Assembly (NCBI GenBank): GCA_964621305.1
Contig: CAZUOM010000005.1
Coordinates: forward strand, 18,647-82,646
DNA length: 64,000 nt
From: an uncultured Gammaproteobacteria bacterium
Lineage (GTDB): Bacteria; Patescibacteriota; Microgenomatia; UBA10105; UBA927
Direction: 5' to 3'
Positions 11,624 through 56,787 of this stretch are shown here, piece after piece. The translations under genes and the position numbers were made by a program. How positions within the stretch are numbered: position 1 is the stretch's first letter; every line of letters starts with the position of its first letter. The notes below the pieces were generated by a model. The model made no database searches. It was given only the letters and a program-made list of their open reading frames with translations, and had not been told where the DNA came from.

Positions 11624-12925
11624 TCATTTTACTCCTGCAAAGGCAATACGGTCTAGAATCTGTTGCGCCGTTCCCAACACGCGTCCAGAAACAATCGTTC
11701 CGTCTCCCCAGCGATCGGCAATTTGGTCAATAGCCTGAGTTAGTAATCTTTTCCTTCGTTCTTCAACAAATAAACTTTCCTGCTGGTACAAACTTTTTTG
11801 GAGATTAAAACTGCTTATTGCTAAGATTCGAACCGGTTTGGCCGGCGCAGTCATTAGAATCGCTTTAGCACGTTTATAGAAATCAGCGTCCGCATAAAAC
11901 GCAGTTGTCGACTTTTCTCCGTGATTCCAATATGTATGATCGGCAAATAAACAGGACGCGCGAACTCCCGATGCTACAAATCCCCCGTCCCGCAGGCGTT
12001 TGCCCATTTTTGCCACGAGTTGGGCAAGGATTTTATGCAGTTCATTCTGGGTTGGCAAGTAAGGCTTCCCCAAGGCGTAGGACTGACCAAAGCTCTTCTG
12101 CTCGGCTTCAATTTCCCATGAAGGGTATCCATGAAGTCTAAGCCACCACAAATAGCCCGTGACTGCTCGAAACGCGCGCTTGAGCGCAACGGGTGAGGCT
12201 CGATAAAAATCAAGCGGAGTCTTTATTCCGGCTGACCGCAGCCGCAGACTGTTACCTTCCTTAATGCCACACAGATCAACAAGTTCGAGCTTGCCCAGAA
12301 CTTCTTCGATATTCTCTTTTGTAATCACGTCAAATCCATCGGGTTTATGAAGTCCGCTAGCAACCTTGGCCAGATACCTATTCGGCGCAATGCCAATAGA
12401 GACTGTAAGCCACTCACCGATTTCTTCTTTAATCCGTTGTTTTATTTCCCGTGCAGTATTTGTCATTTGGCATTTGTCATTTGGCATTTTAAGCACTATT
12501 TCATCTATCGATTCAACGGAAAAATTCGGCGTGTATGAAGAAAGGAGTTCCACGAGCTTACGGTTCACAAATCGATATTTTTCCGGATCAGGAGGTAAAA
12601 CGATAAGATTGGGAAAAATTTGCTTGCCCTCCCATACGCGCATGCTGGTCTTGATACCAAGTTTTTTGGCCTCTCGCGAGGCAGCCAAAATGCACCCGTT
12701 TGACTGGACATAGGCTGCAACAGCCACTGGTTTGCCGCGCAGAAGCGGGTTTGCCTGCTGCTCAACGGAAGCAAAGCAGGAGTTAAGGTCGATATGCATG
12801 ATGGTGGGAGGAGCTGAAGAAAAATTGTTATATTGTTTCATTGTTAAATTGTTACAAAGTTTTTCTTTCAACAATGTAGCAATGTAGCCATGTAACCATT
12901 CTCTAAACAGTCGAGTCAATCTCAA
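11624..12925 (-). CDS. dinB: DNA polymerase IV (Y-family translesion polymerase, DinB)
   Basis: longest ORF 433 aa; the conserved start of the Y-family polymerase domain is MHIDLNSCFASVEQ (ATG at 12796..12798), so the true start is probably 12798 or 12840 rather than 12925. Confidence 0.8.
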   Translation of the reverse strand: MRLTRLFREWLHGYIATLLKEKLCNNLTMKQYNNFSSAPPTIMHIDLNSCFASVEQQANPLLRGKPVAVAAYVQSNGCILAASREAKKLGIKTSMRVWEGKQIFPNLIVLPPDPEKYRFVNRKLVELLSSYTPNFSVESIDEIVLKMPNDKCQMTNTAREIKQRIKEEIGEWLTVSIGIAPNRYLAKVASGLHKPDGFDVITKENIEEVLGKLELVDLCGIKEGNSLRLRSAGIKTPLDFYRASPVALKRAFRAVTGYLWWLRLHGYPSWEIEAEQKSFGQSYALGKPYLPTQNELHKILAQLVAKMGKRLRDGGFVASGVRASCLFADHTYWNHGEKSTTAFYADADFYKRAKAILMTAPAKPVRILAISSFNLQKSLYQQESLFVEERRKRLLTQAIDQIADRWGDGTIVSGRVLGTAQQILDRIAFAGVK

Positions 12926-13157
12926 GGAGCTTCCATGATAATAACTCTGTATCGAAGCTCAACTTAAACGCCGTTGTTCCATCGGTCACTGAAAAAACGT
13001 GGGTTAAGGCCCTCCCTTCCCGCGTTGTATGGTGCAGGCCTACTTTGACAATCTGGTAGCGCCTCCCGTGCCAGTAAATCGACGTCGGTGCTGCTGACTT
13101 CTTGATGTGGTTAAATAAAAGATTTACCGAAACAGACTCATCGATTATTTCTGGCAT
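12903..13157 (-). CDS. hypothetical protein upstream of dinB
   Basis: 84 aa ORF with no recognisable motif; its 3' end overlaps the longest dinB ORF. Confidence 0.3.
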   Translation of the reverse strand: MPEIIDESVSVNLLFNHIKKSAAPTSIYWHGRRYQIVKVGLHHTTREGRALTHVFSVTDGTTAFKLSFDTELLSWKLLEIDSTV

Positions 13158-38567: not shown

Positions 38568-39056
38568 TTGGTAATAATGAAAAAGACAACTGCGTTAATT
38601 ATTAGAGATGAACTTAAAAAAGCCAAACTTACCGGCCTTCCTAAAAAATTTGATGGTTTATCCAAAAGAGTCGATGGTTTATCCAAAAGAGTCGATGGTT
38701 TATCCAAAAGAGTCGATGGTTTGTCCAAAAGAGTCGATGGTTTGTCCAAAAGATTTGATGGTTTATCCAAAAGAGTCGATGGTTTGTCGAAAAGAGTCGA
38801 TGACATATCGAATCGAATGGACCAAGTAAACGACGCCGCTCGAATCATTCAGGAAAACGAGCAGAACCTGAAGGACTTAGGCGGACTCAAACGCCGACTC
38901 GACGTCTTGGACAAAATATTTGTTAGGGTCGACAAAATTGCCGGTGAAGTGACTAAATATCGAGAGGAGCAAGAACTCAACAGTAAAGCGCTATCCAATC
39001 ATGACTACCGCCTGGAACGAATTGAAAAACACCTCAACTTGGCTGTAACCAGCTAG
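38568..39056 (+). CDS. coiled-coil protein built around eight tandem heptad repeats (VDGLSKR)
   Basis: 162 aa; only plus-strand gene in the region; internal 21-bp x8 tandem DNA repeat; charged helical N- and C-terminal flanks; stop overlaps dnaE stop convergently. Confidence 0.5.
   Translation: MVIMKKTTALIIRDELKKAKLTGLPKKFDGLSKRVDGLSKRVDGLSKRVDGLSKRVDGLSKRFDGLSKRVDGLSKRVDDISNRMDQVNDAARIIQENEQNLKDLGGLKRRLDVLDKIFVRVDKIAGEVTKYREEQELNSKALSNHDYRLERIEKHLNLAVTS
38646..38813. repeat. 21-bp tandem repeat x8 (consensus gtcgatggtttRtccaaaaga)
   Basis: directly visible; in-frame (21 = 7 codons) within the 38568..39056 ORF; units differ at 1-2 positions. Confidence 0.9.
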
Positions 39057-43934: not shown

Positions 43935-45263
43935 TCATAAAAGAAAATTTTTTAACTTCTTCAAGGACAATTCTGCTTGCGCCGTCGGAAGAAGTTTTTT
44001 TATTTGACCAACCAGGAAAAACATCGCCTGCTGTTTTCCCTTTTTATAATCTTCTACCGCTTTTGGATTTTCGGAAAGGACTTGTTTGATAATTTTTTCC
44101 AGTTTCTCATCTGAGACACTCGACCCGGCACCAGATTGTTGAGCAATTTGCGCAAGCAACTCTTCTGGCGAAACCGTCGCTATATCTATTTTTTTATTTA
44201 TTATCCAATTCGCAATTGTTTTCGGGCTTGTTTTTTTGTTAATGGCGGCTTTTTCAAAGTAATCTGCACGCTCTCGCGTCTCCGTAAGAAGAGCCGCATC
44301 ATATTGACTTAGGTTATATTGCTTCATAAACCGCTCTTCTTTTGCCTCCGGCAATTCTCCAATTTGGGATTTGAGATTTGTGATTTGGGATTTCTCCCAT
44401 GTTATGGGAGGGATGTCCGGTTCAGGAAAATACCGGTAGTCATGGGCTTCTTCTTTCTCCCGTTGAGCCTGCGTAATTCCTTTGGATTCGACAAACCCCC
44501 GCGTCTGCTGCGTCGGCCTTTCGCCGCGTTCCAACATCTCAGTCTGGCGTTCAACCTCAAATTCAATCGCTTTTCTTGCAAATTTAAACGAGTTAATGTT
44601 TTTGATTTCCACTCTGTAATTTGGATATTGGATATTGGTAGTATCGGATATTGGTAGTATTGAGACACTGGGCTCGATTCGCATGCTACCCTTCTCCATA
44701 TCTGCATCGGAAATACCCAGATACCGAATGATTCTCTGGAGTTTTTTGAGAAATATATGAACGTCTTCCGATGAACGGAAATCCGGCTCGGTAACAATCT
44801 CAACCAACGGTACGCCGCTTCGGTTAAAATCAATCAAGCTTACTCGCTCGCCGTTTACTCCTGCATGCTGCAGCTTCCCGGTGTCTTCCTCCAAATGTAC
44901 CCGCCTAATGCGTATGTTATTAAACGATCCGTTAACGCAAAACGGAGCGTCATATTGAGATATTTGATAGCCTTTTGGAAGATCAGGATAAAAATAGTGC
45001 TTGCGGTCAAATTTACTCTCTAATGGGATTTTGCAATCCAGAGCCAAGCCAAGAAGGACAGTCCATTCAACTGCTTTCCTGTTAGGTACAGGCAAAGATC
45101 CCGGCAATCCCAGACAGACTGGGCACGTAATCGTATTTGGCTCTCTGCCAAAATGATCCGCCGGGCAGCCGCAAAACATTTTGCTTTTTGTCGCAAGCTC
45201 CACATGGACCTCAAGGCCGATAATTGGTTGGTATGTCATAATGTTGGCCGTCTTGTATTCCAC
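43935..45263 (-). CDS. gatB: Asp-tRNA(Asn)/Glu-tRNA(Gln) amidotransferase subunit B
   Basis: 442 aa; N-terminal YQPIIGLEVHVELATKSKMFCGC and zinc-ligand cysteines; followed by gatA/gatC. Confidence 0.9.
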   Translation of the reverse strand: MEYKTANIMTYQPIIGLEVHVELATKSKMFCGCPADHFGREPNTITCPVCLGLPGSLPVPNRKAVEWTVLLGLALDCKIPLESKFDRKHYFYPDLPKGYQISQYDAPFCVNGSFNNIRIRRVHLEEDTGKLQHAGVNGERVSLIDFNRSGVPLVEIVTEPDFRSSEDVHIFLKKLQRIIRYLGISDADMEKGSMRIEPSVSILPISDTTNIQYPNYRVEIKNINSFKFARKAIEFEVERQTEMLERGERPTQQTRGFVESKGITQAQREKEEAHDYRYFPEPDIPPITWEKSQITNLKSQIGELPEAKEERFMKQYNLSQYDAALLTETRERADYFEKAAINKKTSPKTIANWIINKKIDIATVSPEELLAQIAQQSGAGSSVSDEKLEKIIKQVLSENPKAVEDYKKGKQQAMFFLVGQIKKLLPTAQAELSLKKLKNFLL

Positions 45264-46648
45264 TGGGTCGCTGCTTCATAAACAGAACCCACTTGAAACA
45301 GTCGTTCTTCGGAAAATTGGGGCCCGATCAGCTGCATCCCGACCGGCAACTCTCCGGCAAATCCGCACGGAATATTAAGAGCCGGAACGCCTGCCAGATT
45401 GACCGGACACACAAAAATATCGGAAAGGTACATGGCAAGCGGATCGTTGGTTTTCTCCCCGATACGAAACGGCACTGTGGACGATGAAGGGGCGACAATT
45501 ATGTCAACTTTTTTAAAAGCTTCATCAAAGTCTTTTTTGATAAGCGTCCGGACTTTTGCAGCTTTTTTGTAGTACGCCTCATAATATCCTTGAGAAAGAG
45601 CAAACGTCCCCAGCATAATCCGTCGTTTTGCTTCTGCCCCCAACATTGATCGTTTGTGCCCGTAGCGGATGCCGTCAAAGCGGGAAAGGTTGGAGCTGAC
45701 CTCCGACGGGACGAGAATGTAGTAGCAAGCCATCGCATAGTCGGTATGCGGCAATGAAATCTCCACAGTCCGTGCTCCCAACTCCTCCAATTTCCGTATC
45801 GCATCCTCTGTGAGGTGCCGGACATCTGACTGCATACCGGGTAAAGACAGATACTCTTTTGGTACGCCGATGACAAAATCTCGCATGTTTTTGCCCAGAG
45901 CGTTCGTATAGCGGGCAACGGAAACAGCGGGCGTCGTTGCATCATGCACGTCTTTACCCGCAGTAATTTCGTAAAGCAGCGCGCAGTCTGCAACCGTTTT
46001 GGTCATGTGGCCAATTGTGTCAAAAGACGACGCCATAGCTATGATGCCGTAGCGTGATACTCGTCCGTATGTAGGTTTTATGCCAACAAGATTGCAAAAT
46101 GCGGCCGGTAGTCTCACAGAGCTCCCCGTATCAGTCCCGGTTGCCGCAAGACACATGCCAGCTGCTACAGCAGCCGCCGAACCGGAGCTAGATCCACCCG
46201 GTACGCGACTTAAGTCATAAGGATTCTTTGTCGGTCCAAAATCGGAATTTTCCCCGGACGATCCATGCCCCCACGCATCTTCATTTGTTTTCCCGATGAT
46301 GATAGCTCCCGCCTCCTTTAACCGTTCCACGGCTGTCGAGTCAAACGGCGGCAAATAATTATCAATAATTTTTGCTCCGGCAGTTGTTCGTAAATCTTCT
46401 GTCGTAAATAGATCTTTACATGCAATCGGTATTCCCAGAAGCGGCTTCTTTGTCCCACTGGCTCTCTGTTTATCGGCACTGTCCGCTTGATCCATGACCT
46501 CATCACGGTTGACTGTAAGGAAAGCGTGAACTCTGGAATCTACAGTCTCTATTCTGTTAAGGCACGCGCCAACGAGCTCGCGGCACGAGTACTCCTTCTT
46601 TCCCAATGATTCAAGTGCCGACCGTATCGCCACGTTCTTAATATCCAT
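45236..46648 (-). CDS. gatA: Glu-tRNA(Gln) amidotransferase subunit A (amidase)
   Basis: 470 aa; amidase signature GGSSSGSAAAVAAGM. Confidence 0.9.
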   Translation of the reverse strand: MDIKNVAIRSALESLGKKEYSCRELVGACLNRIETVDSRVHAFLTVNRDEVMDQADSADKQRASGTKKPLLGIPIACKDLFTTEDLRTTAGAKIIDNYLPPFDSTAVERLKEAGAIIIGKTNEDAWGHGSSGENSDFGPTKNPYDLSRVPGGSSSGSAAAVAAGMCLAATGTDTGSSVRLPAAFCNLVGIKPTYGRVSRYGIIAMASSFDTIGHMTKTVADCALLYEITAGKDVHDATTPAVSVARYTNALGKNMRDFVIGVPKEYLSLPGMQSDVRHLTEDAIRKLEELGARTVEISLPHTDYAMACYYILVPSEVSSNLSRFDGIRYGHKRSMLGAEAKRRIMLGTFALSQGYYEAYYKKAAKVRTLIKKDFDEAFKKVDIIVAPSSSTVPFRIGEKTNDPLAMYLSDIFVCPVNLAGVPALNIPCGFAGELPVGMQLIGPQFSEERLFQVGSVYEAATQWNTRRPTL

Positions 46649-47455: not shown

Positions 47456-48229
47456 TCATCGACGCACTAATACAAATTGGTGAGCCTGCCACTCAAGCGC
47501 ATCGTCAAGGGGCTGTAAGTCGATTTTTTTCTGATACTTCAATTCAAGCGCTTTACCAATCAGCCAGTCGGCGAGGTGAGGGTTTTTCGGGAGTAGCGGC
47601 CCGTGGAAGTAGCTGCCGATGGCGTTTTTATAAACCGCCCCTTCATATCCATCCTCTCCATTGTTTCCATATCCTTTAATCACTCTCGCGAGCGGTTTCA
47701 TCTTAGCCCCTAAATACGTCCTCCCACCGTGGTTTTCAAAACCTACTATTTTCCTGTTTTCCCATGAACCATGAGCCATGAGCCATGAACTCAGCTCAGC
47801 AACCACATTCCCAATCAACCTCTTCTTCTGATCTCCCGGGTGCTCGGTGTACAGGTCAAAAATACCTGCTCCGGGTATCTTTGCGCCTTGGTAGGGTTTG
47901 TAATAATGGCCGACGAACTGGTAGGCCGCACAGACAAATAGCGCCGGAATTCCTTTTTCGACCATTTTTTTGACTGTTTCTGATTTTTTGCCCAAAAAAT
48001 CCTCTGCGACAATCTTCTGCTGCCGATCCTGCGCCCCACCCATAAAGAGAAGATCGCAACGCTCGAGAGTCGGGTATCGAGTTTCGAGAGTGATGCGTTC
48101 AGCTCTTAGCTCAATGCCTCTCCACACGCACCGCTTCGTCAAACAAATAATATTCCCACGATCACCATATGTCGACATTAGGTCGGGATATAACCACCCT
48201 ATGGTAATGCTCTGTTTCATCTTTTTCAT
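47456..48229 (-). CDS. gatD: lipid II isoglutaminyl synthase glutaminase subunit (CobB/CobQ-like GATase)
   Basis: 257 aa; ITIGWLYPDLMSTYGDRGNI...LLFMGGAQDRQQ...ALFVCAAYQFVGHYY matches the GatD family; directly downstream of murT. Confidence 0.75.
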   Translation of the reverse strand: MKKMKQSITIGWLYPDLMSTYGDRGNIICLTKRCVWRGIELRAERITLETRYPTLERCDLLFMGGAQDRQQKIVAEDFLGKKSETVKKMVEKGIPALFVCAAYQFVGHYYKPYQGAKIPGAGIFDLYTEHPGDQKKRLIGNVVAELSSWLMAHGSWENRKIVGFENHGGRTYLGAKMKPLARVIKGYGNNGEDGYEGAVYKNAIGSYFHGPLLPKNPHLADWLIGKALELKYQKKIDLQPLDDALEWQAHQFVLVRR

Positions 48230-48287
48230 GACCTAGCAGTGAAAAGCGGCCGCTTGTTACTACTAGGTTTTAAAGGATCTTAGACTT

Positions 48288-49796
48288 TTACAATATTCTC
48301 CTGCCTGTTAGTAGTTTACGCACTTCCAACATAGCTGAATACGTAGGCAATATGTAAAGAGTTTCTGATTTTGGAGTTTGTCTTAGACACCGGTTTATTG
48401 CTTTCTTTAAGTCTTCTTCAATTTGAAATTTGAAATTTGAAATTTGAAATTTTGAGGGATTTGAGTATTTTATTCTCAATCCCATATCCCAACATCGATC
48501 TCCCGATATTACCATTATCGTTTTTTCCGCGATCATCTCAAAATCCACATCCCAGATCCAGCTAACGTCTCGCCCATCCGGAATACGATCGTTGAGGACA
48601 AACAAAATATTTTTAGCGCCCAGTTGGAGAACTGTTCGTAACGATTCATTAAATCCGGCAGGATTTTTTGAGAGAAATATCTTCACCTTTCGACCATCAA
48701 TCTCAAATTCTTCCTGGCGGCCAAAGGCAGGAGAAAAGCCCCTAAGCGCATGCTTAATTTTCTGATCGGCAATGCCTAATGACTTTGCTGTCGCGACAGT
48801 CGCAAGGGTATTGTAACGATTATAGAAGCCTGGCAATGGATACTCCCACGTCGAAATATCCGGTTTTGGTCGTATGTTTTTACACCTGGCGCAGCGCCAG
48901 TCGCCTATGTGAGAATAATAAACGCCCTTGTACGTTAACCGTGTACCGCATCGCGGACAAAACGTTGAATCAGTTGCATGCTCGAGCTTTTCGACAAACT
49001 GCGCCGGATCATCGAGACCAAAGAATATGACCCTTTTTGTCATCGCGATCCGCCAGCTGGCGGAGTGGCGATCTCGGACTTGATTTGAGATTGCTTCGCC
49101 ATGAGAATGGTCTCGCAATGACAAAGGCCGTGCTATCTCAGCAATCTGCGGATCATCGGCATTGGCAATTACCTGAATACTAGGGCCGAGCCTCGAGCGA
49201 TCCCGAGTCTTTGCGAGGGAGAAGCGATCGGCTCGTCCTGAGGAGTCCTGAGCTTGCGAGGGACGACGAAGGGCTCTCTCCCATTTCTCCGCGATCACAT
49301 CCACCTCTCCATACCGATCCAACTGATCCCGAAAAAGATTAAGTAAGACAACAACAACTTTTTGTTTGTTGTCATTGCGAGGAGTCTTCGACGAAGCAAT
49401 CTTCTGTTTAATTGAGATCGCTTCGCCGTCAGAACGGTCTCGCGATGACAAGTTAGCCAGTACTCCCGGAAGGGAGTTTTCGTCTACCTCAAACACTCCC
49501 CATTCCCCCGGCGGACTCGTAATGATGGCAGAAACGATACCGTTAAGAAGGTTTGCGCCGCTTGAATTGTGAACGACACTTTGTCCGTCTTTCTCAAGAA
49601 TTGTTTTTATCATGAAAGCTGTCGTTGTTTTTCCGTTTGTTCCGGCAACCAAGATGATATTTTTAGGTGTTATTTTAGATAAAATATCGGGGTCAATCCG
49701 CAACGCAATTTCCCCCGGCCAAGTTGCTCCAGCGCCGAGGTTGAGTAGTTTAATTAGCAATGAAACAATTTTTCCGAGAAAGACGGGAAAAATCAT
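48288..49796 (-). CDS. murT: lipid II isoglutaminyl synthase, Mur-ligase-like subunit MurT (with internal in-frame insertions)
   Basis: 502 aa; ILVAGTNGKTTTAFMI P-loop, conserved LNLFRDQLDRYGE block, Cys4 zinc ribbon CPRCGTRL...CARCKN; several low-complexity in-frame insertions coincide with palindromic DNA elements. Confidence 0.8.
   Translation of the reverse strand: MIFPVFLGKIVSLLIKLLNLGAGATWPGEIALRIDPDILSKITPKNIILVAGTNGKTTTAFMIKTILEKDGQSVVHNSSGANLLNGIVSAIITSPPGEWGVFEVDENSLPGVLANLSSRDRSDGEAISIKQKIASSKTPRNDNKQKVVVVLLNLFRDQLDRYGEVDVIAEKWERALRRPSQAQDSSGRADRFSLAKTRDRSRLGPSIQVIANADDPQIAEIARPLSLRDHSHGEAISNQVRDRHSASWRIAMTKRVIFFGLDDPAQFVEKLEHATDSTFCPRCGTRLTYKGVYYSHIGDWRCARCKNIRPKPDISTWEYPLPGFYNRYNTLATVATAKSLGIADQKIKHALRGFSPAFGRQEEFEIDGRKVKIFLSKNPAGFNESLRTVLQLGAKNILFVLNDRIPDGRDVSWIWDVDFEMIAEKTIMVISGDRCWDMGLRIKYSNPSKFQISNFKFQIEEDLKKAINRCLRQTPKSETLYILPTYSAMLEVRKLLTGRRIL
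49028..49113. mobile_element. MITE-like palindromic element with 12-bp terminal inverted repeats (TGTCATCGCGAT...CTCGCAATGACA), in-frame inside murT
   Basis: termini are reverse complements; interior is an inverted pair of a ~38-nt unit (gagattgcttcgcc...ggtctcgcaatgaca). Confidence 0.5.
49370..49450. mobile_element. second MITE-like palindromic element with 12-bp TIRs (TGTCATTGCGAG...CTCGCGATGACA), 81 nt = 27 codons, in-frame inside murT
   Basis: same TIR family as 49028..49113; a third degenerate copy of the unit lies between them at ~49190..49290. Confidence 0.5.
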
Positions 49797-56633: not shown

Positions 56634-56787
56634 CTTTCCTTTTTCTCAATACCATCAACCTAGTAGTAACAAGCGGTCGCTTTTCACTACTAGGTTCCAA
56701 GAAGAGTGAGTCCTCCACGGACTGAAGTAATAATTTACCGGAAAATAAATCTCGTGTACACTACGTCAACGCGTACTCTCTAAAAAA

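Follow-up and report, generated by a model that had tools for sequence, protein, structure and literature searches.

Probable translated inverted dimers of a TGTC-tagged, REP-like hairpin unit in a murT gene of the Patescibacteria

The window analysed here is a 64,000-nt stretch of contig CAZUOM010000005.1 (assembly GCA_964621305.1, positions 18,647 to 82,646) from a groundwater-type uncultured bacterium of the Patescibacteria, or candidate phyla radiation (CPR). It contains the gene murT (coding sequence 48288..49796, minus strand), whose 502-aa product matches the Pfam families MurT_C (2e-32) and Mur_ligase_M. Two palindromic elements, E1 (49038..49123) and E2 (49370..49450), lie inside this gene and are the subject of this report. 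The solved proteins nearest to the product are the MurT proteins of S. aureus and S. pneumoniae; MurT is essential in both species, and its essentiality in the present organism is an assumption. In the analysis the source contig was identified as SBBN01000014.1 of assembly GCA_005239695.1. The closest homologues carry the labels Gottesmanbacteria, Microgenomates or Patescibacteria, and the gene order LemA, M48 peptidase, MurT, GatD, GatCAB is kept in relatives.

E2 is an inverted dimer of two hairpin units and occupies 81 nt, exactly where a preliminary description of the locus had placed it and with the arms given there (TGTCATTGCGAG and CTCGCGATGACA). Its 27 codons fall within codons 116-143 of murT (LSSRDRSDGEAISIKQKIASSKTPRND). 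Unit 1 (49414..49450, minus strand; nhmmer E 3e-4) consists of a TGTC tag, the stem ATCGC/GCGAT, the inner hairpin CCGT-TCTG-ACGG and the tail CTC, and as single-stranded DNA (ssDNA) it folds into ....(((((....((((....))))....)))))...; unit 2 (49370..49403, plus strand; E 2e-6) has a TGTC tag, the stem ATTGC/GCAAT and the tail CTT. E1 is 86 nt long and covers codons 225-253 (LSLRDHSHGEAISNQVRDRHSASWRIAMT). It had been placed at 49028..49113, a start that is off by 10, and its left arm, TGTCATCGCGAT, has one mismatch to the consensus proposed at that time. Unit 1 of E1 (49087..49123, minus strand; E 2e-5) carries a TGTC tag, an ATTGC/GCAAT stem and the inner hairpin CCAT-TCTC-ATGG, and belongs to the same unit type as unit 1 of E2. 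Unit 2 (49038..49075, plus strand; E 0.05) carries a TGTC tag, an ATCGC/GCGAT stem and the inner hairpin CCGCCAGCTGGCGG, with an ssDNA fold of -10.4 kcal/mol (z -2.5). The unit combination of E1 recurs in two metagenome loci (L209 and L231). E1 and E2 have one half of 45 nt in common at 84% identity, and because their other halves differ, each is a heterodimer. The preliminary description had taken each for an inverted pair of a single ~38-nt unit. Its 12-bp arms, described as exact reverse complements, are so only at the level of the consensus; in E1 and in E2 alike, the Y/R position shows a mismatch or a wobble pair.

When the 12-mer of the arms was searched for with at most one mismatch, four occurrences were found in the 64 kb against 0.5 expected, a number that none of 100 shuffled sequences reached. 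All four lie inside murT, as inverted pairs 57 to 62 nt apart, and all four window units begin with TGTC. RNA folding, which the preliminary description had suggested as a check, gave z-scores from -3.9 to -5.9 against shuffles (E2, -36.5 kcal/mol, z -5.9; E1, z -3.9 to -4.7). The ssDNA fold of E2 has a z-score of -3.8, and the ssDNA folds of three of the four units show the tag leading into a 5-bp stem, with an inner region enclosed and a tail left unpaired. E1 and E2 are each in frame and yield the peptides reported earlier. Against Rfam, with E values of up to 10 admitted, the stretch 48800..49700 gave nothing beyond chance matches (a microRNA model at 16 bits and a long non-coding RNA model at 13 bits), literature searches with strings of the element sequence returned unrelated primers only, and a protein search with a 62-aa query of concatenated insert peptides gave no match.

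A family profile was built from 313 half-units. The copies have the conserved boxes TGTCATTGCGAG and CGAAGCAATCTC in common, and the sequence between the boxes is variable. Within the same half, the variable base of box 1 covaries with that of box 2 (T-A 385, C-G 59, T-G 2, C-A 0; Fisher 7e-72), whereas no pairing was seen between the same base and the opposite end of the element (C-A 28, T-G 29, C-G 1). Because the covariation is confined to the unit, we describe the unit as a hairpin, in which an unpaired TGTC tag precedes the 5-bp stem ATYGC/GCRAT, the stem encloses an inner region, and a tail without pairing follows. At loci where the first tag base was not forced by the search it is T in 57 of 60 cases and C in two of 60. 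The 3-nt tail is CTC, CCC or CTT. A perfect inner stem of at least 5 bp was found in 25% of the long units, compared to 2.7% in shuffles, so that an inner hairpin is common in the family and not universal. Direct repeats beyond chance, as a target-site duplication would leave, were absent at three boundary offsets (186 and 60 elements). Of the 237 unique elements that the fetched loci yielded in all, 58 have a unit of the C-G stem variant, and in 57 of these it is partnered by a T-A variant unit; perfectly symmetric dimers of the C-G type were nearly absent.

Relative to most of 120 homologues to which it was aligned, the MurT of the window contains three inserts, A (residues 119-147), B (180-203) and C (227-253). 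The closest orthologue (P0001) is without insert A. This agrees with the earlier expectation that the inserts would prove lineage-specific. The protein keeps every column that is invariant over 60 homologues, including the P-loop, the FRDQLDRYGE block and the Cys4 ribbon, and murT is apparently intact despite the elements. An AlphaFold2 model of the protein (predicted TM-score, pTM, 0.85) aligned with MurT crystal structures in Foldseek at TM 0.75-0.78. The main or only long blocks of low predicted confidence (pLDDT) in this model are residues 121-140, 181-200 and 231-250, which coincide with inserts A, B and C; each is a loop between a helix and the next strand of the central domain, in line with the surface loops that the preliminary description had suggested looking for. 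The peptides of E1 and E2 are probably read as extra surface loops of ~27 to 29 hydrophilic residues that are predicted to be disordered. GatD docks on the MurT C-terminal domain (PMC6113224), and in the model the inserts sit away from that domain. Going by the usual alpha/beta topology, the insert loops would lie opposite the nucleotide site.

Insert B had been regarded as a third, degenerate copy of the element, and murT as having been hit three times. Two clear elements are present. In insert B (49207..49273, plus strand, codons ~180-203) there are two partial half-unit matches, at 49211..49229 (E 0.035) and 49254..49271 (E 0.011), which may be decayed unit fragments; they score 3 to 5 bits in a 236-nt search and are in direct orientation. 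In a larger multi-locus search the second of them alone was reported, at E = 6.4, and in relatives site B is a plain low-complexity linker. Insert B is, with uncertainty, a weak relic at most. Recurrent insert peptides were also observed at sites B and C of MurT homologues (for example LDSGNQAIKPYH and SRPGLEA / SRPGPSFAQATAGRLEA, LRLRSGQALE), which suggests that other repeat families occupy the same loops.

Three orthologues (P0010, P0012 and P0085) share insert A with the window's MurT; its codon and its frame are the same in all four, and the shared inserts are palindromic at the DNA level in the orthologues that have them. Compared with P0010, the DNA of insert A is 91% identical (93% at third codon positions), whereas the rest of murT is 63% identical (39% at third codon positions). 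Insert A is thus conserved above its host gene, a pattern of DNA-level constraint or recency. In a distance tree the window's MurT groups among orthologues that mostly have an empty site A, and P0010, P0012 and P0085 form another clade. The site-A element of P0012 has a different inner hairpin. Two further observations concern this site. Two orthologues, one per clade (P0006 in locus L236 and P0088 in L235), carry at the exact codon of E2 a dimer of another type, CGTC-1 (TTGTCATTCCGG...CCGGGATGACAA, read as LSFRPKSRNPEKK..WIPDQVRDD); this dimer and the E2-type dimers have identical TTGTCAT...ATGACAA boundaries, and units of the CGTC-1 type were not found in the window. In the murT of P0085 (L160, 10356-10487) a second, shorter element (TGTCATGAGAGATTGCTTCGCTACGCTCGCAATGAC) is nested in frame in the site-A element. 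Either site A was hit repeatedly, or resident copies were converted or replaced from other copies.

The terminal-pair pattern was found in 37 viral contigs and at least 120 genome loci from many phyla; the hosts among the matches listed include Patescibacteria, Bacteroidota, Cyanobacteria, Chloroflexota, Planctomycetota, Verrucomicrobiota, several Proteobacteria and Firmicutes. One related genome (L160) has E2-type elements in frame in gatD, gatB and murT. When metagenomes were scanned with the E2/E1 unit, 67 loci with 70 instances were obtained, and from these 27 distinct spanning open reading frames (ORFs) of at least 250 aa. Host genes with Pfam assignments were those for ArgRS, LepA, a polyprenyl synthase (with two inserts), RadA, DinB, an ABC ATPase, methionine aminopeptidase (Map), a class II aminoacyl-tRNA synthetase-like protein, a pseudouridine synthase and a family 2 glycosyltransferase, and GatD, GatB, MurT, a MurF-like ligase and PheT were identified by eye. 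The Cys/His-rich frame is used in one of 28 intragenic copies, yet it is open about as often as another frame, which speaks for translation of the intragenic copies and their filtering by selection. The likeness to the in-frame proliferation of Rickettsia palindromic elements (RPEs), drawn in the preliminary description, is borne out by these near-identical copies in unrelated genes of related genomes. The rarity it ascribed to such insertions is not: they are not rare in the superfamily of repetitive extragenic palindromic (REP) sequences (PMC3733652), and they are apparently common in relatives of the present host.

Between the members of some unit pairs, which stand ~300-400 nt apart, lies a conserved ~95-aa ORF that encodes a GIY-YIG domain (Pfam GIY-YIG, 3e-14 and 4e-17). 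Among the fetched loci, 12 of 16 GIY-YIG ORFs had units on both sides, and the 3' unit begins 2-4 nt past the GIY-YIG domain. Because these loci had been chosen for their units, 42 homologues were fetched by protein alone. Only two of them carry the present unit type. Of the 39 loci that could be tested, about 30 have inverted CGTC/TGTC REPs on their flanks, with a type particular to the locus. In locus L192 a 97-aa GIY-YIG ORF lies between the two units of E2 (35/38 and 33/35 identical), and in L235 a GIY-YIG gene adjoins murT and is flanked by the same two unit types as make up the dimer inside the murT of that genome. On the strength of these two loci, E2 is best read as a gene-less derivative of a GIY-YIG element. 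By size, single-domain build and catalytic residues, the enclosed gene resembles the published Ssn family. Chenal et al. (2025) described Ssn proteins as ssDNA-specific GIY-YIG nucleases that bind the hairpin repeat NTS and cut a few nucleotides upstream of it, and reported that ssn genes are flanked by Ssn-related motifs (SRMs; PMC11893778). The association of hairpin repeats with GIY-YIG genes is accordingly already published and not new here.

By architecture, the units belong with the CGTC/TGTC-tagged REPs of Di Nocera, De Gregorio and Rocco (2013), which include intragenic copies and with which Neisseria dRS3 and Rickettsia RPE-4 and RPE-6 have been equated (PMC3733652). Both have an unpaired 5' (C/T)GTC tag and a stem that opens with A-T pairs; both occur mostly as inverted dimers, often heterodimers, with intragenic copies that add 20 to 30 residues. 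They differ in that the present stem is 5 bp and leads into an internal loop with a variable inner hairpin beyond it, whereas the published stems are 8-9 bp with a 4-5 nt loop. A short unpaired tail ends both, but its sequence here is CTC, CCC or CTT as opposed to the consensus CCA. The signature peptides LAMT, PRND and VIAS are not on the published intragenic list (PMC3733652), the present hosts are Patescibacteria and many other phyla, and the four published families differ in stem and loop. The SRM/Ssn systems are alike in having HGTC-tagged hairpins inverted around a ~94-97-aa single-domain GIY-YIG gene, with a repeat variant per gene; unlike the present case, their description mentions neither in-frame or intragenic copies nor CPR bacteria (PMC11893778). 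The RPEs (Ogata et al. 2000, as reviewed in PMC10969869) are likewise palindromic selfish DNA inserted in frame, at fold-compatible positions, in many unrelated housekeeping genes. They belong to another host phylum and sequence family and are ~100-150 nt long, compared to ~70-93 nt here, and it is for the present family that a candidate partner gene is identified; the link between the two runs through the published tie of RPE-4/6 to the CGTC REPs (PMC3733652). REPIN/RAYT systems (Bertels and Rainey 2011, PMC3116915) also comprise an inverted REP doublet that forms a long hairpin; its autonomous counterpart is a single gene with those REPs on either side. There the tag is GTAG and not TGTC, and the flanked gene encodes a Y1 (HUH) transposase and not a GIY-YIG nuclease. 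A RAYT-type partner was rejected, as no Y1_Tnp was present among the called genes at contig positions 10.1-79.9 kb and the gene flanked by the units is GIY-YIG.

We consider it probable, with good confidence, that both elements are inverted, non-autonomous dimers of a REP-like unit with a TGTC tag, tied to GIY-YIG elements and tolerated in loops of MurT. The family would be a sequence-divergent relative of the CGTC-tagged REPs and the SRMs (Neisseria NTS/dRS3, Rickettsia RPE-4/6). In its full-length relatives a ~97-aa gene for a GIY-YIG nuclease lies between the same two units, and E2 would have a ~10-nt spacer in place of that gene. The dimers may have landed in, or been copied into, helix-to-strand loops of the MurT central domain, where stop-free frames would let them be translated and the enzyme would tolerate them. 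We further infer that an Ssn-type nuclease could cut single-stranded DNA beside the units and so drive copying or gene conversion between copies; conversion would keep copies alike and let one unit family replace another at the same codon.

Several results weigh against this interpretation. The published SRM consensus, HGTCWYN(0-2)YYVSBRHN(0-5)WNVSBRGN(0-2)RNCYNB, matches none of the 313 family units and nothing in the window, and control sequences (NTS and a unit of locus L263) do match it. The fold energies of single units, taken alone, lack significance, and the covariation is that of one two-state position, for which the existence of two unit lineages could partly account. The length from TGTCAT to ATGACA in intragenic copies (ORFs of at least 250 aa) leaves a remainder of 0 in nine cases, 2 in 11 and 1 in two when divided by three. 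Not every element length is thus divisible by three, which obscures where the insertions truly begin and end, and extra bases are needed to keep the frame. The preliminary description had looked to further copies in the genome, and they are present in related genomes; in the window and a further 10 kb (~74 kb of the source contig), the profile of 313 half-units finds no copy beyond murT, and recent proliferation or activity in the source genome is therefore hypothetical. The same ~74 kb contain no GIY-YIG ORF, and no transposase family is found among the called genes on ~70 kb of the contig. To our knowledge, GIY-YIG nucleases do not carry out strand transfer, and we know of no Ssn element for which transposition has been demonstrated.

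The classification as MITE-like, that is, as a derivative to which a DDE-transposase insertion sequence gave rise by deletion and which moves by cut-and-paste through 12-bp terminal inverted repeats, was rejected, and we regard it as very improbable. Inverted termini of the form TG...CA, small size and many dispersed copies would agree with a MITE. The partner found with the same ends encodes a GIY-YIG nuclease and not a transposase, however, and no transposase family was detected on the 70 kb of contig mentioned above; target-site duplications are lacking, pairing is conserved inside each half and not between ends, and the internal boxes are conserved across phyla. That the inserts are ordinary, lineage-specific low-complexity linkers with no origin in mobile DNA is extremely improbable for the locus as a whole. 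All three sites vary in length in many homologues, and insert B resembles such a linker and may be one. E1 and E2, by contrast, are strong DNA palindromes, as are the inserts in orthologues that share them. Near-identical DNA in unrelated genes refutes the linker explanation for both, and the identity of third codon positions in the insert far exceeds that elsewhere in the gene. We give almost no credence to an artefact of assembly or binning by which repeats were wrongly joined into murT: the source is a contig of a metagenome-assembled genome, but the frame is intact through both elements, and the same element recurs, in an unchanged codon position, in assemblies made independently from other samples.

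The hairpins could also be kept for a benefit to the host, as marks for Ssn-type cleavage of incoming single strands (as with NTS in Neisseria), as mRNA structure or as protein loops. Nucleotide conservation far above that of the host gene, reuse of the same codon in separate clades and the published role of NTS and Ssn in transformation (PMC11893778) would fit such a benefit. Many orthologues nevertheless lack the inserts or have other repeat families at the same sites, the host genes are functionally unrelated, the peptides are predicted to be disordered, and the ~74 kb of source contig show no Ssn-like gene; we think a host benefit unlikely. A bolder form of the REP-like, GIY-YIG-linked interpretation is that the units are live substrates of an Ssn-type nuclease, with repeated cutting of ssDNA beside resident units triggering repair from other copies. 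This we hold as a tentative possibility, on which we would not wager. If it applied, it would account for 91% element identity between orthologues in which silent sites are saturated, for the finding that one murT codon holds the ATTGCGAG-type dimer in two separate clades and, in a single member of either clade, a CGTC-1-type dimer with identical boundaries, and for the one copy with a nested second element. Surface loops of essential CPR proteins would then be continually rewritten by homing-like, tag-directed exchange of cassettes.

If E1 and E2 are such REP-like dimers, translated selfish palindromes of the Rickettsia type are extended to the Patescibacteria, where they are apparently common and reuse the same protein loops, and the phenomenon is tied to the recently described pairs of Ssn nuclease and hairpin repeat. 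The published SRM definition would miss a widespread variant, and the units would point to further candidate Ssn-type nuclease and target pairs. In CPR genomes, gene calls and alignments can be inflated, and also broken up, by such inserts, and the inserts may mark permissive loops in enzymes such as MurT/GatD.

Downstream of murT is its partner gene, gatD (47456..48229, minus strand; Pfam GATase_3). In related genomes GatD carries an E2-type element (L160, 11869-11946, and also L184, L212 and L215) a few residues upstream from GFENHGG, the conserved motif with the catalytic histidine of S. aureus GatD. In the GatD alignment the gatD of the window has a heptamer array at that site. In-frame heptanucleotide arrays of ~4.1-4.7 copies (29-34 nt) were observed at 47762-47790 in gatD, at 48420-48452 in the part of murT encoding the C-terminus, at 12458-12489 in a DinB-like ORF (11627-12958), and at 44362-44393 and, with 40 nt, 44621-44660 in the ORF 43938-45275. 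AATTTGA x4.7, for instance, is translated to KFQISNFKFQI, and CCATGAA x4.1 gives LSSWLMAHGSW. The arrays look like a second kind of short in-frame insert; peptides that resemble their translations occupy MurT site A in many homologues. Two related palindromes of 38-40 nt lie at 48231-48268 (ACCTAGCAGTGAAAAGCGGCCGCTTGTTACTACTAGGT), in the spacer between murT and gatD, and at 56657-56696, and may be a terminator or another small repeat family. At 38652-38802, a 21-nt tandem repeat of 7.2 copies is in frame in a 168-aa ORF and is read as (DGLSKRV)n.

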